A DNA stretch of 64,000 nucleotides from Candidatus Woesearchaeota archaeon (GTDB lineage Archaea; Nanobdellota; Nanobdellia; SCGC-AAA011-G17; UBA489): NCBI GenBank assembly GCA_964343875.1, contig CAYFJW010000001.1, positions 81,345 to 145,344 on the forward strand, given 5' to 3'. The position numbers and the translations under genes were made by a program. This document shows, one piece after another, positions 9,594 to 61,604 of this stretch. Under the pieces are notes generated by a model. That model was not told the DNA's origin and did not search any database. It saw nothing but the letters and a program-made list of their open reading frames with translations. Positions within the stretch are counted from its first letter, which is position 1. Each line of letters begins with the position of its first letter.

Positions 9594-10976
9594 ATGGCAC
9601 AAGACTTCGATGCACTTCTACAATTCTATGCAAGAAAAGATATCCAAGAAGCAATATTAGAACTAGCAGAAAACAGGGAAGTCACTGGTTCTTTCAATAT
9701 GCAAGCATTCGGTAAGCGACCAGATGTTCTCCAATACAAATCAGACATCTTCGAACTAGCAAGGAAGGGGATTACCTCGTTCCATGTTTCAGAAGAAAGG
9801 TGGTCCAACCCACTAGAAATCAGAACAGGCATGTCAAAAAAAGAATTAGACCAAATAAGAATCGGATGGGATTGTGTCTTAGACATTGATTCAACATATG
9901 TTGAATACTCCCAAATAACTACATATTTACTCATTGAGGCATTAAAATTATACGGCCTAAAATCGTTCGGAGTTAAATTCTCCGGAAGAAAAGGATTCCA
10001 CATAATAATCCCCTTTGAAGCATTCCCAAAAGAAGTTGATGGAAAACCAATTGAAACAATGTTCCCCGAAGGTCCAAGAATGATTGCAGACTTCTTGGGA
10101 GAAAAAATATACGAAAAACTATCAGAGATGATTCTAAAAGACCAAAAGATAGAGGACATTGTGAAACTAACAAACAAACCAATTGAAGAACTAACAGATA
10201 AAAATGGCAACTTCAACCCATTCTCAATAGTTGATATCGACACCATCCTAATCTCCTCAAGACACTTATTCCGTTCAGTTTATTCAATCAACGAGAAATC
10301 CTGGTTAGTGAGTGTTCCAATAGATCCCAATAAAATAATGGAATTCAAACTAAGGGATGCAAAGTTTGAAAATGTCAAAACAGATATTAAATTCTTAAAA
10401 AAACCAGAAAAAGATGAGGCTAGAACCTTAATACTGCAGGCCTTTGACGAATCAAGAGAGCAATTCATACAGGGAAAGAAATCAACAATAGTAATAGAAG
10501 GAAAAGATTACTTCGAAGAAGATTCAACAAAGAGAGAATTCAAACCAGAAGACATAGACAACAAATTAGTAAAAGAAGAATACTTCCCTCCCTGCATTAA
10601 AGCCCTTCTAAACGGCACAGAAGAAGACGGGAGAAAGCGTTCCTTATTCATATTAATGAACTTCTTCAAAGGACTCAACTTCTCACAAGCAGCAATCAAA
10701 GAAAAAATAGACGAATGGAATAAGAAAAACTATGAGCCATTAAGAGAGGGCTATGTCATAGCCCAATTAAACTCCTTGATGAGAAGCTCCACTTTAATGC
10801 CTCCAAATTGTAAGAACGATGCATATTACACCTCTTTAAGAGTCTGCAAACCCGACAACTTCTGCCAGAAAATAAAGAACCCTCTAAATTACACTACAAA
10901 AAAGATGTGGATAGAAAAACAAAACAAGAAGAAAAGAAGAACTTCAAAAAAAGTATCAAAAAAACAAAAGAAATAA
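9594..10976 (+). CDS. priS: DNA primase small catalytic subunit PriS fused to a Cys-rich PriL-CTD-like C-terminal domain
   Basis: Catalytic motifs WDCVLDIDSTY (DxD) and FSGRKGFHIIIPFEA (SGxRGxH). The C-terminal ~150 aa carries four Cys (FPPC, PPNC, RVC, NFC) and a Lys-rich tail. Confidence 0.75.
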   Translation: MAQDFDALLQFYARKDIQEAILELAENREVTGSFNMQAFGKRPDVLQYKSDIFELARKGITSFHVSEERWSNPLEIRTGMSKKELDQIRIGWDCVLDIDSTYVEYSQITTYLLIEALKLYGLKSFGVKFSGRKGFHIIIPFEAFPKEVDGKPIETMFPEGPRMIADFLGEKIYEKLSEMILKDQKIEDIVKLTNKPIEELTDKNGNFNPFSIVDIDTILISSRHLFRSVYSINEKSWLVSVPIDPNKIMEFKLRDAKFENVKTDIKFLKKPEKDEARTLILQAFDESREQFIQGKKSTIVIEGKDYFEEDSTKREFKPEDIDNKLVKEEYFPPCIKALLNGTEEDGRKRSLFILMNFFKGLNFSQAAIKEKIDEWNKKNYEPLREGYVIAQLNSLMRSSTLMPPNCKNDAYYTSLRVCKPDNFCQKIKNPLNYTTKKMWIEKQNKKKRRTSKKVSKKQKK

Positions 10977-11525
10977 CCTCTCATAATTACTATCGCTTAA
11001 ATCCTTCTTATAATCTTGCAAAGCCTTAACCAACTTAGCACTATCTTTACACAGGCCCCGCTTAAATAAAAACTGACAAAATTGAGTAACATTCTTCGGA
11101 ACCAAAACCCTTTTACATCTCTCAAAATCAATTAAAACAGGCTTACCATTAACAACAATAACATTCTTAGTAATCCTATGCATCTCAAACTTGTTAACTT
11201 TCAACTTATCCATAACTCTACACTGTCTTAATATCTCTTTCAAAACAGAATCCTCATCAGAACAACCAACTAAATAGTCAGATAAATGAACACCATCTAA
11301 ATATTCCATAAAAAGAGACTTTTCATCAGAAAAATACAACTTAGGACCAATTCCCTTTTTGTTTAACTCCTTTAACCAGTAACTTTCAGTCTCCAATCTA
11401 TTAACTGCATCACTCTTAGGGTTAGGAATCTTAACAGCACAAACCTTTCCCCTGTACCTCCCGAGTTTAACTATGCCTCGCTTACCCTTCCCAATTATTT
11501 TTCCAAAAGACTTATTTTCCGCCAT
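10956..11525 (-). CDS. Atypical small protein kinase-like protein (Bud32/RIO-sized)
   Basis: Gly-rich loop GKIIGKGKRGIV and VAIK-like CAVKIP motif. The catalytic loop is unusual (EMHRITKNVIV), and LIDFERC occupies the DFG-like position. Confidence 0.4.
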   Translation of the reverse strand: MAENKSFGKIIGKGKRGIVKLGRYRGKVCAVKIPNPKSDAVNRLETESYWLKELNKKGIGPKLYFSDEKSLFMEYLDGVHLSDYLVGCSDEDSVLKEILRQCRVMDKLKVNKFEMHRITKNVIVVNGKPVLIDFERCKRVLVPKNVTQFCQFLFKRGLCKDSAKLVKALQDYKKDLSDSNYERLFLLFF

Positions 11526-11598: not shown

Positions 11599-13335
11599 GT
11601 GTTAATGAGGTTAAGATTAATTCCAAAAGTTCTAATATTCATCTCAATTGTATTAGTCCTATCTTTGACAGTTAGCGCAGATAATCACACTTCTTCAGGA
11701 GAATTTGACCCAACAGACAGCTACTTATGGCTATCTGAGCAATGTGAAGCAGGTAATTGTGATGATGATCTAACTGCAACAGCATTCTATGCAGTGGCAA
11801 TGAAACGTTCTGGATATGGAAACACATACGGGATGCAAGCAATAAAGCACATTCAAGCAGAAAAGAAAGAATCAGATTCATGTTTCCCTTCAGGTAGCTG
11901 TAACATCAAAGAAACTGCCATGGCTTATTGGGCATTATCAGAATATGGAGAAGATACTGCAGGAATTGAAGATTACATCAGAGACGAATTAGACGTTGGT
12001 TTAACAGATAACTGGTGGTTAGAAATAGTTACAACTGCCCAGAACCAATACTGTACAATTGGCTATCCAAAAGAAGGTGTGCAAGAACAAATTGACATCC
12101 TAGTTGACCAAGGAACTTTCCCCGAATGTAACGCTGGCCAGCCAGAAACTTTTTTCGATCTAAATGAATGTATTGAAAACAACCCAGTAAATTCAAATCC
12201 AGCGTTAGAATTAACAATTGACTGTTCAGCAATAGGACAAGGAACAATAATCTCAATATTATACAACTCTGGGCCTTCATTCTACTTGACGGAGCAAGCA
12301 ACAACATCCAAGTACCAGACACAAGTAAAGAATGCCTGTCATTCAAGATCTGGAACCTGCGACAAAGACACCTCACTTTGGGCCAATTGGGTATTAGATA
12401 GCAGAAACTCAGACATTGACACAGGATTATTCTTACTAACACTGCACGACTCCTTAGACCCAATAGACACAGCACTATTATACTTAACAACCTCGGACAC
12501 AAATAGAAAGGATACACTACTAACGGAACTAATTGATTTGCAAAGACTTGACGGAAGTTTTAACAAAAACAACTTAGAAACAGCAACAGCAATCTTAGCA
12601 TTATCTGCTTCAGGTTCAACAGATGAATTAAACGCGGCAATTGGATACTTAGAAGGCTCAGTAAGATCAGAAGGTTCATGGGACGGAGATGAACTAACAA
12701 CTGCATTAGCACTTTATTCAGCATTCACAGGTGCATCGATAGATTTGCCCCCTCTAGGTCCGGCACCACCAGGATCACAACCACCTCCAGCAGTTTGTGG
12801 AGACAACTATTGCGACCCACAATTTGAAGATTATAACACATGTCCTAAAGACTGCCCGGCATTAGGTAACCCCGATTGCGTAGAAAACAATAAATGCGAA
12901 GTTCAATTTAATGAAAACTCAAACAACTGTCCAATTGATTGTTTCTGCGGGGACGGAATATGCGACTCAACAGAAAGCGGCCTTTGTGAACTAGATTGTG
13001 GCGCGATAGCAACACCCCCGCCAGGAGTTCCACAACCACCAATACAAATTGAAGAAGAAGGCGGACTCCCTTGGATAATTATGTTAATAATTTTAATATT
13101 GCTAATCTTGGCAGTATATCTTGCATACAACCATTACTTCTCAAAGAAGAAGAAACCGAAGAGCACATATTCAAACAGACCAACTTTCAATCCTTCGGCG
13201 GGAGGATTTAGTGAACCAAAACAAAGACCAAGGGCTCCACCAAGGCAAGCAAGACCCACAAGAGGAAAGAAATCCAAAGCAGAGTTAGAATTAGAAAAAT
13301 CATTAGGTGAAGCCAAGAGATTGCTTGGTAAATAG
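11599..13335 (+). CDS. Secreted type-I membrane protein with prenyltransferase/terpene-cyclase-like alpha/alpha-toroid repeats and a Cys-rich stalk
   Basis: Signal peptide, then repeats (WALSEYGEDTAG, LWANWVLDSRNSD). A Pro-rich linker leads to a Cys-rich module (CGDNYCDPQFEDYNTCPKDCP...). A TM helix (LPWIIMLIILILLILAVYL) and a basic tail follow. Confidence 0.5.
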   Translation: MLMRLRLIPKVLIFISIVLVLSLTVSADNHTSSGEFDPTDSYLWLSEQCEAGNCDDDLTATAFYAVAMKRSGYGNTYGMQAIKHIQAEKKESDSCFPSGSCNIKETAMAYWALSEYGEDTAGIEDYIRDELDVGLTDNWWLEIVTTAQNQYCTIGYPKEGVQEQIDILVDQGTFPECNAGQPETFFDLNECIENNPVNSNPALELTIDCSAIGQGTIISILYNSGPSFYLTEQATTSKYQTQVKNACHSRSGTCDKDTSLWANWVLDSRNSDIDTGLFLLTLHDSLDPIDTALLYLTTSDTNRKDTLLTELIDLQRLDGSFNKNNLETATAILALSASGSTDELNAAIGYLEGSVRSEGSWDGDELTTALALYSAFTGASIDLPPLGPAPPGSQPPPAVCGDNYCDPQFEDYNTCPKDCPALGNPDCVENNKCEVQFNENSNNCPIDCFCGDGICDSTESGLCELDCGAIATPPPGVPQPPIQIEEEGGLPWIIMLIILILLILAVYLAYNHYFSKKKKPKSTYSNRPTFNPSAGGFSEPKQRPRAPPRQARPTRGKKSKAELELEKSLGEAKRLLGK

Positions 13336-13341
13336 GGGGTT

Positions 13342-14622
13342 ATGATGGCCTTCAAAACAAAATATTTTTTATTCCTACTTCTTATTCCCATAGCACTTGC
13401 ACAATTAGACCTAATTGAAATAAATTCTCAAAGAACAGAACTATCACAAGGAGAGGTCTATCAAGCAGAAATAACACTAAACAACCCAATAACTGAATTA
13501 AAGAAAACAAACATTAAACTATATTCCTCAGAGAACGCAATAATTCCTGTGTCACCTTTCTTGAACGAACCAGGAAACAACCACTATTATCTCTACTTTG
13601 AAGTCCCTTACAGCATAGAAGACGGGACATATCAATTAAGAATACAAGACCAATCATTCCTGGTAAATGGCGTTCTTCAGCAATTTGAAGGCATAGAAGA
13701 AATAACAATCACAAAGTCACAACCATCTGTTGCAGTAACTCCCGGTTATTTCTTATTGCCTGAGGGAGAAACAGGACAGATTAGCATAACAACTACTTCA
13801 AAAGACATTCAAACAAACATATTTTTCCTAACTCCAAAATACATAACACACCCCTACATCACAGAACAATCAATTAACCCAAATGTACCAAGAACATTCA
13901 CTTTCGACTATAGCACTTTAAATGCAACATCCTCAGAGCTAGTAGTTAACTCTGGAACAAAACAATACAAAATTCCAGTATTAATCGAAGGTCAAATTGA
14001 AAACAATCAAGAAAACATCACCCAAAACCAACAAACAAGCCCAATTACATTCTTTGTAGATAACAACCACCTAGAAAAAACAATAAAATCAGACCAGGCA
14101 ATTGAAGGCAATCTCTACATGGCCAACACCCTAAACTCCTCAATAACCGACATAACCTCAGAACTAACAGGAAACCTAAAAGAAATAATAACAATGGGTT
14201 CTATCCAACCAATACCTGCTTCATCAAACTTCACAACATTCATGAGCATAAATCAAGCAAAGGATGCAAAAGAAGGCATTTACTCGGGAGATTTCATTCT
14301 TTCTAGCGAACTTTACAGCTCATCATTAGAAATAACAATAACTGTAGAAGAAACAGAAACAACAAGAGAAATCTTAGAACCTCCAGAAGTAACCGAAACA
14401 ACAGAGACCGCAGAACCAGAAGCAAAAGCTCCAATTGAGGAATTCATCCCTTGGGACCTTTCAGACGGATACGAAGAAGAATCAAAAGTGGCAGCAAATC
14501 CCTTCATATATCTAATCATTATTTTTGTAGTAATCGCAGTTGTAATTTTCCTATTATCGGGTAAAAAATCAACTAAGAAGAAAACATTCAAAGATTTAAT
14601 GAAAGAAAGTCAAAAGAAATAA
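13342..14622 (+). CDS. Secreted membrane-anchored surface protein (Thr/Glu-rich stalk)
   Basis: Signal peptide MMAFKTKYFLFLLLIPIALAQ, many NxS/T sequons, an ETETTREILEPPEVTETTETAEPE linker, and a C-terminal TM plus KKSTKKK tail. Confidence 0.5.
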   Translation: MMAFKTKYFLFLLLIPIALAQLDLIEINSQRTELSQGEVYQAEITLNNPITELKKTNIKLYSSENAIIPVSPFLNEPGNNHYYLYFEVPYSIEDGTYQLRIQDQSFLVNGVLQQFEGIEEITITKSQPSVAVTPGYFLLPEGETGQISITTTSKDIQTNIFFLTPKYITHPYITEQSINPNVPRTFTFDYSTLNATSSELVVNSGTKQYKIPVLIEGQIENNQENITQNQQTSPITFFVDNNHLEKTIKSDQAIEGNLYMANTLNSSITDITSELTGNLKEIITMGSIQPIPASSNFTTFMSINQAKDAKEGIYSGDFILSSELYSSSLEITITVEETETTREILEPPEVTETTETAEPEAKAPIEEFIPWDLSDGYEEESKVAANPFIYLIIIFVVIAVVIFLLSGKKSTKKKTFKDLMKESQKK

Positions 14623-15050: not shown

Positions 15051-16076
15051 TTACATCCTAAACAACACATAATAAACGCCCAATCCACCAATGAGATATA
15101 TGAGATAAAATGCCATTCCATCCCACCATTTCCTCTCTTTAACAGCGATTTTGGCGTCTTCATTAACCTCATTTACAGCATTTATATCCCTTTCTATTGC
15201 TCCACCCTTCAACAAAGTCCTGTCTTCTTTCTCAAAAACCCTCTGCCCCTCGACCCATATCAAACGCATATCTTTCTCCCTGAAACCCTCAACAACAAGT
15301 ACATATTCTCCTTCCTCGGGATAAGCAGAATTATTACAAACAGCAACAGGAAACTCAACAACCTGGCCATCATGGGCCTCGACCCTAAAGCTGCTAACAA
15401 CATCAACGCCCATTAAATAAGCCTTAATCTTCTCAGTTCCATCTCTATTATTCCAAATGGCAACCCTAACCTTTACATTACCACAGATATTGGGAGAATT
15501 ACTATCGACACCTTCGATATGAATATAACCATTTTCATCATTAACCTCTTCAATTTCTTTATTCTCTTCACTAGTTTCATTGCCTTCGCTCTCATTACTT
15601 GGCCCGTCATTAATCTCACCAGGACTAGGCACACAAGAGTATTCTTCTTCACCGTAACAAACAGCATTGCCGTCACCATTGCCAATTGATCCATCGTAAC
15701 TTTTACTATCGACTAAGTCCATATTCAAGTTGTACAATGAAACAACATCTTCCGCATTACTTAGTCCATTCCCGATAGTTTTCCCGGCCGAATAAATACT
15801 AACAAATTCCAAGTCAACATCGAAATAAGGAGGGTAACCCTCTTCAACAATTAAATTAATCTTACTATTCCCGCTTCCATTCACTAAAAGTATTATATCT
15901 TGGCTTGTTGAATCTTCAATTGTCCAACCATCAATCAATGTCCCCTCACTAAATATAACCTCCACGTATTCCTTGTTATTATCGCTCCCAGAAGGATTAT
16001 ACATGATCTCAGTTATCTCAGCATTTACAAAAGTAGAACAAAGAACAAACACCAAAACATAAATCCATCTAAACAT
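15051..16076 (-). CDS. Secreted membrane-anchored protein with an N-terminal lamin-tail-domain (LTD)-like module
   Basis: Signal peptide MFRWIYVLVFVLCSTFVNA, then EITEIMYNPSGSDNNKEYVEVIF (LTD signature INEI..NP....EfvEL). Acidic stalk and C-terminal TM. Confidence 0.5.
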   Translation of the reverse strand: MFRWIYVLVFVLCSTFVNAEITEIMYNPSGSDNNKEYVEVIFSEGTLIDGWTIEDSTSQDIILLVNGSGNSKINLIVEEGYPPYFDVDLEFVSIYSAGKTIGNGLSNAEDVVSLYNLNMDLVDSKSYDGSIGNGDGNAVCYGEEEYSCVPSPGEINDGPSNESEGNETSEENKEIEEVNDENGYIHIEGVDSNSPNICGNVKVRVAIWNNRDGTEKIKAYLMGVDVVSSFRVEAHDGQVVEFPVAVCNNSAYPEEGEYVLVVEGFREKDMRLIWVEGQRVFEKEDRTLLKGGAIERDINAVNEVNEDAKIAVKERKWWDGMAFYLIYLIGGLGVYYVLFRM

Positions 16077-16912: not shown

Positions 16913-19900
16913 CTAAATTCCTGTCTTAGCAACAGGTCCAGCTAGATCCTCAGAAATCACATCTACAACGCTCTCAATGACTCCTGAGCCTCCAGAACCG
17001 CCGTCTAAGCCCATTCCCTCAGTCTTCTCCAAGCAAATGACTCTAACTTCTTCATAGTCAAGAGTAATCTGGGTCGATAGTTCGGCTTTATTTCCTACAA
17101 CAACTTTTTCAGTCTTTGTAGGTCTAACACTTTCCCAAGAATTTATTTCAGTGATTATTGGCCAAGCCTGATTAATATAGTCGTTCCATGTTGCTCCAGG
17201 TGTGCTGTGGATATTATCAATCATTGGTTGCAATAAAGCCTGAATCTCTGGTTCAACATCGTCATGGTAAGGGTTTCCGTCTTCATGCCCAATCTTATAA
17301 GTTGTATACAACCAAGCACTTACATCTGTTGGTAAATTCTTTGCAGTTAGTTTTATTGTTGCACTTTTACCTGCCCTGTCAAAGTTAACACCATACCAAC
17401 AATAACTAGTTCCTTCCTGATTCCTAACAGTAAATGCACGAACAGTATCTTCTTCATTTAAGTCATCATCAACCATCAACGTTCCAGGCGCATCATGTAA
17501 TAGCTTAGATAACCAGAACACTGGTTTGTATACTCCACTTCTATCAATCATGTTTTCATCCCATCCAAGAAATCTTCCCTGTATTGTTCCGGGTTCATGA
17601 ACATTACTATAGAGTTGGAACCAACCCGCACGGTCTATATCATAATTAGCACTATTTGCAAGCAAAGCCATTGTACTTGAAACAGCATGTATGCCATCGC
17701 CATTGATCATTGGCTTACCGGGCAGACCATCACTAAACTCGTCCATATTTGTTCCTAAAAATGCACCATTATTTGCCCGCCAATGCTCAAGCGCCTGCTC
17801 CGGATCCCCCCCAGGAGTCATTGTATAGGGGTCAGGGTTGTAGTGGTGGTAGTGATGTGTTGCCTTTAGACCCTTAGCATCAAGAGCTTCAAAGACCTCA
17901 ATCGGTACATAGACTTTAGTTCCATTCTCTGAATTTAAAGTACCAAAGAATGCAGAAGTCCCATCAACTCCGACCTCATTACTCGGATCAACCTCATAAA
18001 CCGCCTCAACACCTGCAACCGTTAAATCAACAAATTCTTCCATTGTTGGCCACCAACAATCTCCAGGCGCCTTACAAACTTCCTTCCAATTCTCAACGAC
18101 AAAGTTTGGCTCATTCCATATTATGAAGTACTTGATCCCCTTTGAATTGTAATGTCTTACTACATCCTTAACATAATCTTTCCATGCTTGCATGTCCTTT
18201 GCAGGACCACTTGATTCATAAGTAACACATTCTGTACCAACAAAATCCGAACAATAAGCAATACCTTCTTCTGAAGGAATCCCTTTTATAACAACCATTA
18301 CTTTTGCGCCATTCTTCTGGAGTTTAGTGTGCACTCTGGTGGGAGGGAAACCTCTCTCATACCTATCAAATCTGTGCCCAGTCCTTACATGTATTCCCTC
18401 AACCCCAACCTCATTAATATAAGCATCTAAAAACTTAGGATGCATAAATGGCCCAATAACATTTCCAAAACCTTTAGTTAATCCATGAACATCCTTAACA
18501 ACTTGATCGGTATAAACATTCATCTCAAACTCTTTATCTCCCCCAGGTTCTACCTCAATAAACTCCCTCTCTTCTCCACCAATAATGCCTACACTCCCAG
18601 GCCCGCCCTCGCAAGGCTCGTAACCTGTCTCAAATCCATAGGACTGGAATTCCTCCAAACTCATCTCTTTTGTGTAATAGATAGTGGGGTTATCCACACA
18701 ATAAGTATTGCCACTTATGACAAGCCCATCTTTTGAATCTTCATGTAAATTAAGAAGTCTTTCAGTATTAATATTATCCTCGAAATTGTTTCTTATCAAA
18801 ATATTCTTAGCACCAACCCTATTGTTTCCATCAATCGTAGCATGCACACCAATTGCAACATCCACATCACTGATTGTATTCTCCTCAATACTACAATCAT
18901 GACACCCTTCAACACCTATTGAGCCCTTGTATCTATAAGTTCCATCCAAGGTTATCCTTTCAAAAACGTTTCTAATTGCATGAACGTTAGTTGCAACGGG
19001 ATCAACTCCAGCAGTTCCAGCCCAATTATTCCAACAACAACCGCCAAGTATCAATGCATGATTTCTCACAATCAAATCATGGAAATAGTTGTCAATATAA
19101 TAAACACCGCTAGCACCACCCTTCGCCCAAGAAACAGCACCGGGATCACGTACACTTAAAGAGTCATCATGGAACTCATTCTGTATTATCCATGCACCAT
19201 TAACACCAAATGCATCAACACTTTCACCTTCACCAGCAATGTTAAAAAATTCATTCCTATAAATTAAAACATTTGCAGATTCAGTTGTAGTTTTAATTCC
19301 ATCTTCGTATGCCTCACTTATCTTATTATTATAAACAACCAGATGGTCAGCAATATCTCTATCCCAGATAGTCATACAAACTCTGATGTAGCATCTAATA
19401 TCAAAGCCTTCAAGAGTTGTATACTTTCCGCCAAAATGGATCTTTCCGTCATTATGTCTGGCCTCCATAATCACATCCTCGCCCTCGTAAGCAAAGATCC
19501 TGATAGGCTTATCAGAAGTCCCTTGGAACTTTGCAGTAACACCTCCTTCATCTAGGATATAAGTTCCAGCCCCAACTGCAATAGCCTCACCGGCAACAAC
19601 GTCATACTTCTTCATTGCCTTCAATGTCGCACATGGACCATCAGCACCACTAATATACCGTGGGTACAAACAATTATTATCATCACTTGCCCCTTGTTCG
19701 TTCTGAGCAATGTAATATATTTTTTCAGGCTCAAAATTAAGCATATCTAAAAACTCTTGCGGAACATCGGAAGAATGTCCTCCGCCAACATCCAACATCC
19801 AACCTTCTCCATCACCACTTACCTCTTCTCCTTCAACAGTTTCAGGATCATCAACTAAACCAAAGAACCTAAAGGGAAAACTAAAGAAATTATCTACTCT

Positions 19901-20344
19901 TTTTGCAATAACCTCAATAAATGTTGTTCCTTCATTCCTTTCAATCTTTTTAGGGGTTATTTTCACCGGCTGAACTTTCTTAATGAGTGTATCATCTTTT
20001 AGAATCTTTTTTTCCTTTGGAACAATACCAAAACCACTTTCTACCTCATCAAATATTTCCTCAACAACAGTGTTTGGTGCATCGTCAACAGTTACATCAT
20101 CAACTACAGGAGGAACAGTCTTTACTTCAGGAACCTTGCTCCTTTGATAATCATCGATTTTAGCAATATCATCACCACAAAGAGTCACCCACTTACTCTC
20201 TTCTTCATACCAAACGGTTTTACATTCAACAAAGGAATCATCCGAGGCACCGCCAACACTACTAAAATCAGAGACAGCTCCAACCACGAACACGCTAGAT
20301 AAAAAAACTAAGCACAAAAGTAGTATGTTCTTCAGTCGGATCAC
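16913..20344 (-). CDS. Large secreted multidomain protein: right-handed parallel beta-helix domain plus clan GH-A (TIM-barrel) glycoside-hydrolase-like domain
   Basis: 1143 aa with signal peptide MIRLKNILLLCLVFLSSVFVVGAVS. Beta-helix repeats (NNKISEAYEDGIK...IYRNEFFNIAGEGESVDAFGVNGAWIIQNEFHDD). A YFIIWNEPNF motif is typical of GH-A acid/base glutamate. Confidence 0.55.
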   Translation of the reverse strand: MIRLKNILLLCLVFLSSVFVVGAVSDFSSVGGASDDSFVECKTVWYEEESKWVTLCGDDIAKIDDYQRSKVPEVKTVPPVVDDVTVDDAPNTVVEEIFDEVESGFGIVPKEKKILKDDTLIKKVQPVKITPKKIERNEGTTFIEVIAKRVDNFFSFPFRFFGLVDDPETVEGEEVSGDGEGWMLDVGGGHSSDVPQEFLDMLNFEPEKIYYIAQNEQGASDDNNCLYPRYISGADGPCATLKAMKKYDVVAGEAIAVGAGTYILDEGGVTAKFQGTSDKPIRIFAYEGEDVIMEARHNDGKIHFGGKYTTLEGFDIRCYIRVCMTIWDRDIADHLVVYNNKISEAYEDGIKTTTESANVLIYRNEFFNIAGEGESVDAFGVNGAWIIQNEFHDDSLSVRDPGAVSWAKGGASGVYYIDNYFHDLIVRNHALILGGCCWNNWAGTAGVDPVATNVHAIRNVFERITLDGTYRYKGSIGVEGCHDCSIEENTISDVDVAIGVHATIDGNNRVGAKNILIRNNFEDNINTERLLNLHEDSKDGLVISGNTYCVDNPTIYYTKEMSLEEFQSYGFETGYEPCEGGPGSVGIIGGEEREFIEVEPGGDKEFEMNVYTDQVVKDVHGLTKGFGNVIGPFMHPKFLDAYINEVGVEGIHVRTGHRFDRYERGFPPTRVHTKLQKNGAKVMVVIKGIPSEEGIAYCSDFVGTECVTYESSGPAKDMQAWKDYVKDVVRHYNSKGIKYFIIWNEPNFVVENWKEVCKAPGDCWWPTMEEFVDLTVAGVEAVYEVDPSNEVGVDGTSAFFGTLNSENGTKVYVPIEVFEALDAKGLKATHHYHHYNPDPYTMTPGGDPEQALEHWRANNGAFLGTNMDEFSDGLPGKPMINGDGIHAVSSTMALLANSANYDIDRAGWFQLYSNVHEPGTIQGRFLGWDENMIDRSGVYKPVFWLSKLLHDAPGTLMVDDDLNEEDTVRAFTVRNQEGTSYCWYGVNFDRAGKSATIKLTAKNLPTDVSAWLYTTYKIGHEDGNPYHDDVEPEIQALLQPMIDNIHSTPGATWNDYINQAWPIITEINSWESVRPTKTEKVVVGNKAELSTQITLDYEEVRVICLEKTEGMGLDGGSGGSGVIESVVDVISEDLAGPVAKTGI

Positions 20345-26754: not shown

Positions 26755-26802
26755 GCCTGTTCACAATACGGTGAACTATAAGAACTTAACTATAGTGAAA
26801 GA

Positions 26803-26876
26803 TGGACCGGACGGGATTTGAACCCGCCGCATTACGGCTGCCAGCCGTACATTCTACCAGACTGAATTACCGGCCC
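26803..26876 (-). tRNA. tRNA-Ala (anticodon GGC)
   Basis: GGGCCGG acceptor with G3:U70, anticodon loop CTGGCAG, T-arm GGTTCAAATCC, discriminator A. Its 5' end overlaps the last codons of the upstream LAGLIDADG ORF. Confidence 0.8.
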
Positions 26877-27631
26877 AGTTTTCTTACCTTGTAGGGTCTA
26901 ACTAGGCTTAAAAACTTGTTGACTTCCCTTTCCCTTATTCTCAAAACAAAGAGGTCTTTCCATTCAGGATTTTTTCTTTTTTTACACCAAACTATCGAGG
27001 AAATGCCCAGCTCTTCTAAAATGACTTTCATCTGATAGACTAATTCTTTTGAGGTAGTATAATAAAATGCCCTTAATCTATTGTTTGAGGTGCTCAAGCA
27101 ACCATCTGTATCAAAAAACCCCCTTAAAAAACCAATCTTAAACATTCTATTAAGTGATACTCCTCTAAGTTGGCATGTATTATGTTTATTTCTACAATCA
27201 TACTTAAGATAATTATTGAAAAAATAAAATAACTCTTTATTAATTGCCCTAATCCTATACTTCACCTGGCCTTTTCTGTTTGTTTCCTTCCAGATTCTCC
27301 ACGACCTTCCAAAATAATTCTCGAATAATTTTTTCACGTAAATTACATAATTTTCCACATTCCCAAAATGTATAGTCGTGAGGTATTGTCCATTGGGTCG
27401 ATAATGATATTGACTTCCATCTCCTGCAAAAATGCCCACTATCTCCCCCTCAATCTCGGAGAAACTTATTTTATGTGTTGGTTTTTTGTATTTTTTACCG
27501 TTAACTTTTCGATAATAATAGTAGATTGTAGACTTTGCAAGTCCCGTTTTGGCCACTATCTTGCTTATTGAGAGATTGTTTTTTAAATCAAGAATCAAGC
27601 CTACTCTGATGGATGAGTCTAATCTTTTCAT
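26867..27631 (-). CDS. Free-standing double-motif LAGLIDADG homing-endonuclease-like protein with an N-terminal HTH
   Basis: Two LAGLIDADG motifs (IVGIFAGDGS and GFLRGFFDTDGC). N-terminal HTH LSISKIVAKTGLAKSTIYYYY. Not inside an intron or intein. Confidence 0.75.
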   Translation of the reverse strand: MKRLDSSIRVGLILDLKNNLSISKIVAKTGLAKSTIYYYYRKVNGKKYKKPTHKISFSEIEGEIVGIFAGDGSQYHYRPNGQYLTTIHFGNVENYVIYVKKLFENYFGRSWRIWKETNRKGQVKYRIRAINKELFYFFNNYLKYDCRNKHNTCQLRGVSLNRMFKIGFLRGFFDTDGCLSTSNNRLRAFYYTTSKELVYQMKVILEELGISSIVWCKKRKNPEWKDLFVLRIREREVNKFLSLVRPYKVRKLGR

Positions 27632-42057: not shown

Positions 42058-43137
42058 TTAGCTAAAATCGGCTAGTTTTTTCTCGCTTTCAGGGGCTCCA
42101 TGAGTGACTCTTGTAGATCTACCCCTGCCCTCATTAACCTCTCTTAGAGTAATAAATCCATTATCTCCAAGACCTTTCAACTTTCTTTGAAAAGTGGTAT
42201 ACGCTTGTTTTCCTCCAGCCTTTTGATAAGCAACATGCATCTTGCTACTTGTCAACCCAGAATTAAGTTTAACAACATTAAGAATAAACTCTTCCTCTTC
42301 GCCTAACTGAGAAGAACTCTTTCTTTGGAACTCATCCAACCTACTTATCGCTTTTTCAGCATCAATTAATTCAACTTTTCTTTTAGATTTACCTTCCGCT
42401 TCTTCCCCGGCATTCTTTAACAAAAACAATCCAGATCTTATATCTCCCATCTCAAAAGTTTTACCAACTATTTTCTCAAAAGCGTCATCAATTAACACAT
42501 TGGGAACAAAGGCATACTTAACTCTCTCCTGTAATATATCCCTAACCTCATCGTAATTATATGGTTTAAAATCAACAACTTCAGCAAGCATCCTACTCCT
42601 AACTCTGTCATCTAACTTACTCAACCAATCTTTCTCATTAGTAATACAAATTATAGATTTAGTAAACAAATCCTCAAATAATGTATAAAATATCTGTTGC
42701 TCATCAATCTTATCGGCTTCATCCAATATAACAACACAAGGACTTCTATTCAGTATCTTTGTAATCTCCTTCATCAACTCATCAGTATTCCTTCCAGCCG
42801 TAAACCTAAATCCTAATTGACTGCACATCTCCAAAACAACTTTATACGGCGTATCCTTCTTCCAGCAATTGATATACACAGATTTAATATATCCACTTTG
42901 TTCCTTCAACTCATCAATTAAATGCTTTGTAGCAACAGTCTTACCGATCCCAGGAACCCCAGTTAGAACAACATTCTTCCCACTTCTTTTGCTAAACAAG
43001 GGCTTCAAACACTCAGCAATATATTTCTGTTCCCCTTCCCGATGCTTAACCACAGGAGGCATATAATCCACATCAAGGGCAATGCTATCTAAGAAAAGGC
43101 TCTCATCCCCCTTCAACATATCATCAAAGATCCCCAT
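42058..43137 (-). CDS. orc1: Orc1/Cdc6 replication initiator (AAA+ plus winged helix)
   Basis: Walker A VLTGVPGIGKT, Walker B VVILDEADK, and a C-terminal winged helix. Confidence 0.85.
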   Translation of the reverse strand: MGIFDDMLKGDESLFLDSIALDVDYMPPVVKHREGEQKYIAECLKPLFSKRSGKNVVLTGVPGIGKTVATKHLIDELKEQSGYIKSVYINCWKKDTPYKVVLEMCSQLGFRFTAGRNTDELMKEITKILNRSPCVVILDEADKIDEQQIFYTLFEDLFTKSIICITNEKDWLSKLDDRVRSRMLAEVVDFKPYNYDEVRDILQERVKYAFVPNVLIDDAFEKIVGKTFEMGDIRSGLFLLKNAGEEAEGKSKRKVELIDAEKAISRLDEFQRKSSSQLGEEEEFILNVVKLNSGLTSSKMHVAYQKAGGKQAYTTFQRKLKGLGDNGFITLREVNEGRGRSTRVTHGAPESEKKLADFS

Positions 43138-61373: not shown

Positions 61374-61430
61374 GCTAAAAGCTTATTTCTCTTTTCTTAT
61401 TTTTTATTTAATTCTAGTTAGAACTCTAAG

Positions 61431-61504
61431 AGGCACTGGCAGGATTCGAACCTGCGAAATAACCGCTCTGCAGGCGGTCCCCTTAACCACTTGGGCACAG
61501 TGCC
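61431..61504 (-). tRNA. tRNA-Cys (anticodon GCA)
   Basis: GGCACTG/CAGTGCC acceptor, anticodon stem ACCGC/GCGGT with loop CTGCAGA, T-arm GGTTCGAATCC, discriminator U73 (Cys identity element). Confidence 0.8.
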
Positions 61505-61506
61505 AG

Positions 61507-61604
61507 CGGACCCGATAGGATTTGAACCTACGACCTTCTGCTCACTTCTGAGTCCGAAGACTTAATAGAAGGCAGACGCTCTATCCAAACTGAGCTACGG
61601 GCCC
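61507..61604 (-). tRNA. tRNA-Arg (anticodon TCT) with a ~23-nt canonical-position intron
   Basis: GGGCCCG acceptor (G3:U70), D-arm GCTCAGTTTGGATAGAGC, anticodon stem TCTGC...GCAGA. The mature loop is CTTCTAA after removal of TTAAGTCTTCGGACTCAGAAGTG. The intron pairs with the anticodon in a BHB-like arrangement. The gene lies 2 nt from tRNA-Cys. Confidence 0.65.

Follow-up and report, generated by a model that had tools for sequence, protein, structure and literature searches.

The 64,000-nt stretch of Candidatus Woesearchaeota archaeon contig CAYFJW010000001.1 analyzed here (the window) carries an uninterrupted open reading frame (ORF) at 9594..10976 of the forward strand, with an ATG start and a 460-aa product. 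We conclude, with a probability of about 0.93, that the product of this gene is the cellular replicative primase of a Woesearchaeota-type DPANN archaeon, a one-chain enzyme in which the small subunit PriS is fused to a shortened C-terminal domain (CTD) of the large subunit PriL. The N-terminal half has the motifs and fold found in archaeo-eukaryotic primase (AEP) catalytic domains, and the C-terminal half matches the iron-sulfur (Fe-S) domain of PriL in both sequence and fold. The window primase belongs to the DPANN fused-primase family as one of its ordinary members, and this enzyme type has already been described and biochemically characterized. Its peculiarities are local only, consisting of a somewhat longer, probably disordered linker and a tail rich in lysine and arginine.

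Architecture of the fused primase

The initial annotation placed the PriS motifs LDIDS and SGRKGFHII in the N-terminal part of the protein, and both are there, as VLDIDS at residues 95-100 and SGRKGFHII at residues 130-138. All three AEP motifs, as defined in PMC10250227, were located (Table 1). Pfam family PF01896 (DNA primase small subunit) matches residues 107-244 with 28.8 bits, above the cut-off of 26.8, and the same family appears in the precomputed annotation of most homologues. An AlphaFold2 model of the whole primase, built on an alignment of 41 sequences, has a mean predicted local distance difference test (pLDDT) score of 85.9, and low-confidence runs of at least three residues occur only at 219-221 and 290-317. 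Within residues 1-270, the mean pLDDT per 10 residues ranges from 71 to 97 and is mostly above 90. When the PDB was searched with this model by Foldseek, only AEP catalytic domains were returned, at probability 1.00 and E values of 4.5e-8 to 1e-5. They include mycobacterial Prim-PolC/LigD PolDom, Pri1 of human, yeast, and Xenopus, and Pyrococcus PriS (9f28_A, 9f26_A, and 1g71_A, from P. abyssi and P. furiosus). Model and fold search both identify the N-terminal half as an AEP fold, with its (alpha-beta)2 unit and its unit resembling an RNA recognition motif. The whole primase has five cysteines, C94 and four C-terminal ones. Since C94 is the single cysteine of the PriS half, this half contains no Zn-binding module; such a module is present in the PriS proteins of Pyrococcus and Sulfolobus.

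The four C-terminal cysteines lie in FPPC (residues 331-334), PPNC (403-406), RVC (416-418), and NFC (422-424). They had suggested an Fe-S-type PriL-CTD, and the comparisons bear this assignment out. The PriL-CTD half has a sole sequence match in the PDB, PriL of P. abyssi (9f26_B), with an E value of 1.7e-6 for the single sequence and 3.4e-8 for a profile of the domain. In that alignment, FPPC falls on FPPC and PPNC...C...C falls on PPNC...LC...HC, which places all four predicted ligands in register. Four NCBIfam PriL equivalog models also match the primase (best E value, 7.5e-10; second, 2e-9; others up to 1e-4). Their scores are far below the equivalog cut-offs because the match is limited to the C-terminal part of each profile, for example, positions 209-352 of 360. 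The PriL N-terminal domain (NTD), corresponding to approximately the first 200 positions of these profiles, is unmatched by the primase. When residues 318-452 were modeled alone, the mean pLDDT was 86.1 and the predicted template modeling score was 0.81. The top fold match of this model is the [4Fe-4S] domain of yeast PriL, of which 111 of 183 residues were aligned, and the C-terminal domain accordingly has the helical PriL-CTD fold. Lower-ranked matches include the helix-bundle domains of the replication-initiator proteins ColE2 Rep and RepB', as well as photolyases; no unrelated zinc-binding fold is found among the top matches.

Between the two domains, pLDDT falls below 50 across residues 290-317, and this stretch is probably flexible or disordered, judging from the model. 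The distance from the motif III arginine to the first ligand cysteine is 107 residues, compared with 87-112 (median, 97) in homologues parsed by regular expression. At the other end of the protein, 14 of the last 25 residues are lysine or arginine, whereas homologues have a median of 10 and a minimum of 5. AlphaFold2 places a helix (residues 430-451) over the start of this tail, with confidence falling toward the end. The tail is probably a non-specific nucleic-acid-binding extension.

The residues on which function would depend are conserved. In the 41-sequence alignment, which contains homologues at 44-82% identity, D97, D99, S130, G131, H136, D216, R223, H224, R227, C334, C406, and C424 are invariant. 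In the C418 column, the 7 of 41 rows that lack an aligned cysteine have it displaced by 1-2 residues rather than missing. The spacing C-x71-C-x11-C-x5-C is essentially constant across the family. At least two cysteines follow PPNC in 85 of 85 parsed homologues, and they stand at +12 and +18 in 70 of the 85. These counts were made by regular expression, with strict patterns that parsed 85 of 121 sequences; the rest were covered qualitatively by the 41-sequence alignment. Judged from these sequences, the conservation of the cysteines and motifs is far beyond chance.

Table 1. Features of the primase gene and its product (coordinates in the window)
Feature	Coordinates	Strand	Evidence or remarks
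Fused PriS-PriL(CTD) primase, complete gene	9594..10976	+	ORF listing, homologue coverage, identical protein on 14 contigs
TATA-box-like TATTTAAA	9565..9572	+	22-29 nt upstream of the primase ATG, read from the sequence
PriS-type AEP catalytic domain, residues 1-270	9594..10403	+	PF01896, AlphaFold2 model, Foldseek
AEP motif I (hhhDhD), VLDIDS, metal ligands D97/D99	9876..9893	+	D97, D99 invariant (41/41)
AEP motif II (sxH), SGRKGFH	9981..10001	+	S130, G131, G134, H136 invariant in the 41-sequence alignment
AEP motif III region (hD; VDID), D216...H224..R227	10239..10274	+	D216, R223, H224, R227 invariant in the 41-sequence alignment
Interdomain linker, residues 271-317	10404..10544	+	Helix 277-293, then low-confidence stretch 290-317
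PriL C-terminal (Fe-S/helix-bundle) domain, residues 318-440	10545..10913	+	Shortened relative to the canonical PriL-CTD
Cys334 (FPPC), predicted [4Fe-4S] ligand 1	10593..10595	+	Invariant (41/41); aligns with P. abyssi PriL FPPC
R347-K348-R349...F352 (GRKRSLF)	10632..10649	+	K348, R349 invariant; F352 at least 90% conserved
Cys406 (PPNC), predicted [4Fe-4S] ligand 2	10809..10811	+	Invariant; aligns with P. abyssi PriL PPNC
Cys418 (RVC), predicted [4Fe-4S] ligand 3	10845..10847	+	Cys in 34/41 rows; aligns with P. abyssi PriL LC
Cys424 (NFC), predicted [4Fe-4S] ligand 4	10863..10865	+	Invariant; aligns with P. abyssi PriL HC
Lys/Arg-rich C-terminal tail, residues 441-460	10914..10973	+	Lys/Arg count; AlphaFold2 model

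Relation to known primases and predicted mechanism

The closest characterized enzyme is NEQ395 of Nanoarchaeum equitans, a monomeric PriS-PriL fusion of 393 aa that was studied biochemically in 2023 (NAR; PMC10250227). Catalysis by NEQ395 requires D87/D89, H125, D194, H202, and R205, and the D87A+D89A mutant is inactive. Initiation requires R301, R303, and F306 of the PriL part, and the R301A+R303A mutant is primase-dead and polymerase-active. A [4Fe-4S] cluster is bound by C289, C364, C376, and C384. The enzyme is inactive in trans, and shortening of the linker alters the primer-length distribution; linker length also affects activity (PMC10250227).

All 15 mutated or functional residues of NEQ395 have counterparts in the window primase at constant local offsets, a correspondence drawn from the spacing of the residues numbered in PMC10250227 and not from a sequence alignment. 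H58 corresponds to H64 (offset, +6); D87/D89 to D97/D99 (+10); S119, K122, and H125 to S130, K133, and H136 (+11); D194, H202, and R205 to D216, H224, and R227 (+22); C289 to C334 (+45); R301, R303, and F306 to R347, R349, and F352 (+46); C364 and C376 to C406 and C418 (+42); and C384 to C424 (+40). With the exception of K133 and R347, these counterparts show either no variation or a conservation of at least 90% in the alignment, and R347 alternates only with lysine in the rows inspected. Both enzymes consist of a PriS catalytic domain, a linker helix, and a four-cysteine PriL-CTD, and both lack a PriL-NTD and a Zn module. The window primase is 67 residues longer (460 versus 393 aa). Approximately 23 of the additional residues lie between the motif III arginine and the first cysteine (107 residues, versus 84 from R205 to C289 of NEQ395) and are probably disordered, as the model suggests. 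The last two cysteines are separated by five residues instead of seven, the Lys/Arg-rich tail is more pronounced, and the enzyme comes from a mesophilic Woesearchaeota lineage of marine type instead of from a hyperthermophile.

The canonical heterodimeric PriS-PriL primases (P. abyssi 9f26/9f28 and human 4rr2) share the AEP fold and motifs, an Fe-S-type PriL-CTD with FPPC and PPNC..C..C ligands, and the presumed division of labor in which PriS provides the elongation site and the PriL-CTD the initiation site. In contrast to these two-chain enzymes, the window primase is one chain in which the PriL-NTD has no match and the Zn-binding and C-terminal domains of canonical PriS are missing. Its CTD is also trimmed, with 72 residues from the first to the second cysteine compared with approximately 110 in P. 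abyssi PriL.

By homology with NEQ395, we infer a mechanism in which the AEP domain (residues 1-270) is tied by a helix and a flexible linker (271-317) to the shortened PriL-CTD (318-440), where C334, C406, C418, and C424 are the predicted ligands of a [4Fe-4S] cluster. The covalent linker would replace the absent PriL-NTD, which docks PriL onto PriS in two-subunit primases, and the enzyme would act as a monomer. The PriS domain would bind the elongating nucleoside triphosphate and two metal ions via D97, D99, and D216, together with H64, S130, H136, H224, and R227. The tethered CTD would provide the site for the initiating nucleotide and the 5'-triphosphate via R347, R349, and F352, which would allow a dinucleotide to form. 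During primer growth, the length of the linker would restrict the travel of a CTD that still grips the 5' end and would in this way help to set primer length.

The Woesearchaeota subfamily may differ from NEQ395 in primer unit length or template specificity. Such a difference is conceivable because both the primer-length distribution and the activity of NEQ395 shift with the length of its linker, and the basic tail could serve as one more clamp on the DNA or tie the enzyme to the replisome. No evidence demands this variant, and we consider it unlikely.

A second alternative concerns the metal. A four-cysteine domain could bind zinc, or no metal at all, and be purely structural instead of a functional Fe-S PriL-CTD. 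This is very improbable because the four cysteines align one to one with the ligands of P. abyssi PriL and because of the data on NEQ395, in which the cysteine spacing matches and the loss of any one cluster cysteine abolishes the brown color and the 410-nm absorbance (PMC10250227). In addition, the best fold match is a [4Fe-4S] domain, and, as noted above, the zinc-binding fold that would have contradicted the initial annotation is not seen among the top matches.

Distribution and genomic context

Fused primases are typical of the tiny DPANN archaea. According to Raymann et al. 2014, Iyer et al. 2005 were the first to note the fusion in N. equitans; Raymann et al. extended the fused primase to Nanohaloarchaea and Parvarchaeota (PMC3914693). 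Dombrowski et al. 2020 reported it as a synapomorphy of Undinarchaeota and DPANN Cluster 2, a cluster that explicitly takes in Woesearchaeota and Pacearchaeota and whose genomes were reported with the fused version only (PMC7414124). The window primase follows this distribution. At least 3,461 database proteins match it at E <= 0.001 among the scored candidates. Among the 120 matches listed, 119 have lengths of 419-497 aa and align over 92-100% of the query, and the named sources are exclusively Nanoarchaeota, Woesearchaeota, and Nanoarchaeia metagenome-assembled genomes (MAGs). The exception, P0070, is a 502-aa homologue with the JGI label RpoP/RPC12. Its best local alignment covers 39% of the query, yet it scores 442 bits with HMMER, and it may represent either a primase carrying an additional Zn-ribbon at its N terminus or a fusion created by gene calling.

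The nearest species-representative genomes by primase identity are Ca. Woesearchaeota SI054_bin47 (91%), SI047_bin109 (82%), and ERP019367_co1_77 (76%); a Ca. Pacearchaeota MAG comes next, at 46%. Nearest genomes and homologue sources both place the host within Undinarchaeota or DPANN Cluster 2. Since the fused primase is a published synapomorphy, it independently supports the assignment of the window to a Woesearchaeota/Nanoarchaeota-type DPANN archaeon. The use of the fusion as a hallmark of such genomes, already proposed in the initial annotation, is therefore backed by the literature.

In the window, the primase gene lies downstream of a ribosomal protein cluster that encodes L30, L15, SecY, an EMC3/YidC-like protein, L34e, a KOW/L14e-like protein, and prefoldin alpha, and it is followed by a convergent small kinase-like ORF. 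The order L30-L15-SecY-EMC3-like-L34e-L14e-prefoldin-primase-kinase is kept in three Woesearchaeota species, whose primases are 76-91% identical to that of the window. Other housekeeping genes in the window encode class I lysyl-tRNA synthetase, Hjc, Dph2, FtsZ, Orc1/Cdc6, and ribosomal protein P0. The G+C content around the primase gene is 0.35, the same as that of the rest of the window, which is uniform. The primase gene is a core chromosomal gene and not the cargo of a mobile element.

No second subunit gene is present in the window. Family hidden Markov models (HMMs) made from the PriS half and from the PriL-CTD half were run with --max on the 544 six-frame fragments of the 64 kb. They match only the primase itself (1.5e-142 and 6.8e-57), and the next-best E values are 0.38 and 0.1. 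PF01896 and PF04104 are also absent from the 30 other window ORFs scanned by Pfam, namely, the flanking genes out to approximately 31.4 kb, all further ORFs of at least 300 aa, and one of 274 aa. Both searches agree with the earlier observation that no separate priL lies nearby, and the fused enzyme may be the only primase of its host.

The gene could in principle encode a primase-polymerase of a plasmid or integrated virus, like pTN2 PolpTN2, pRN1 ORF904, or RepB', instead of a chromosomal replicative primase. Monomeric fusions of an AEP domain to a helix bundle are typical of mobile elements (PMC10250227 and PMC3914693), and one weak match was found among 72,556 plasmids. The protein matched is hypothetical, 432 aa long, and encoded on the 16.5-kb extrachromosomal element of M. 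jannaschii; it shows 25% identity over the catalytic domain and part of the CTD (E = 3e-4 in tblastn and 4e-11 in a pairwise comparison). Against a mobile origin stand the position of the primase gene directly downstream of the ribosomal protein/SecY/prefoldin cluster, in an order kept across species, and the unchanged G+C content. The flanking genes scanned contained no integrase, no helicase fusion, and no other marker of a mobile element, there was no match in 50,697 phage records, and in the published phylogeny a cellular clade has the DPANN fusion at its base (PMC7414124). The domain designs differ as well. In the fusions of mobile elements (pTN2 PolpTN2, pRN1 ORF904, RSF1010 RepB', and the M. 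jannaschii pDSM2661_2 protein), the helix bundles lack the four-cysteine Fe-S site and are not clearly related to PriL in sequence, whereas the CTD of the window primase is recognizably PriL. Those genes lie on plasmids or viruses, often with helicase domains, whereas the window gene is chromosomal. A mobile-element origin is largely refuted and hardly credible.

The M. jannaschii protein (WP_244409581.1; NC_001733.1, 7425..8723) is itself an unannotated primase of a plasmid, built on the same two-domain plan. Its AEP core (PF01896, 27.6 bits) is fused to a C-terminal helical region, which lacks the cysteines and can be aligned with the EDG(R/K)xR helix of the PriL-CTD. It is an analogue and not the origin of the window gene; as an explanation of that gene it was dropped because the chromosomal synteny is conserved.

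An artifact in which adjacent priS and short priL genes were merged by a sequencing or assembly error can be discarded, even though split short primases occur in nature, as in the two adjacent genes of Nanosalina J07AB43 (PMC3914693), because 14 independent public contigs from several different sequencing runs (the longest of 183 kb) encode the identical 460-aa protein; the near-full-length homologues likewise span the query as one ORF, and no stop codon or frame change occurs in the linker.

Several points weigh against the interpretation of the gene as a one-chain replicative primase. The window covers 64 kb of the genome, and a stand-alone priL or a second AEP gene elsewhere is possible. 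The primase sequence scores 21.4 bits against PF04104, 1 bit under the Pfam gathering score of 22.4; this family is found in the precomputed annotation of many homologues at 45-50% identity. The residue correspondence with NEQ395 is strong but indirect, resting on motif spacing. The Fe-S cluster and the activity of the window primase are predicted; occupancy by a cluster has been demonstrated for NEQ395 only, and even there the cluster is dispensable in vitro (PMC10250227).

Several features were observed around the primase gene. The TATA-box-like element upstream of the ATG (Table 1) may, from its sequence and position, be a candidate archaeal promoter of a leaderless or near-leaderless primase mRNA. 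The convergent ORF (10956..11525, minus strand; 189 aa) has weak, kinase-like Pfam matches, its 3' end shares 21 nt with the stop codon region of the primase gene (10956..10976), and its pairing with the primase gene is kept in three Woesearchaeota MAGs. Beyond it lies a run of large ORFs (11599..14622, plus strand; 15051..16076 and 16913..20344, minus strand). ORFs of 578, 426, and 341 aa in this run have no Pfam match and are followed by a 1,143-aa beta-helix protein (NosD/Pel9A-like). The 578-aa product has a hydrophobic start and a C-terminal part rich in cysteine and proline. In appearance, the products of the run resemble the surface proteins that DPANN episymbionts typically have. In a Pacearchaeota MAG, the primase gene is likewise followed by distant relatives of the 578-aa ORF and of MJ0538.

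Farther away, the Orc1/Cdc6 gene (42058..43137, minus strand) encodes AAA_22 and Cdc6 lid domains. No convincing repeats resembling origin recognition boxes were found in the intergenic regions that flank it, and no replication origin was called. Ribosomal protein P0/L10 (49942..51189, plus strand) is 415 aa long; its Pfam domains end by residue 181, leaving a C-terminal extension that is unusually long for an archaeal P0. A 98-nt tRNA (61507..61604, minus strand; Rfam, 58.8 bits) adjoins tRNA-Cys (61430..61504); it was not reported by ARAGORN and is probably an intron-containing archaeal tRNA. A free-standing 254-aa ORF resembling LAGLIDADG_3 homing endonucleases (26867..27631, minus strand) ends directly on tRNA-Ala(GGC) (26801..26877, minus strand), whose 5' side it overlaps by a few bases; this is an unusual neighborhood for a homing endonuclease.

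Implications for the fused-primase family

The biochemical interest that the initial annotation attached to a compact fused primase was overrated, as the class is already known from the purification and dissection of one of its enzymes (PMC10250227). The gene is useful as an annotation and taxonomic marker and carries little weight as a discovery. As a mesophilic, compact, monomeric enzyme with a predicted Fe-S cluster, the window primase could serve beside NEQ395 as a second model for the relation of linker to primer length and for the role of the cluster, which would be an incremental advance.

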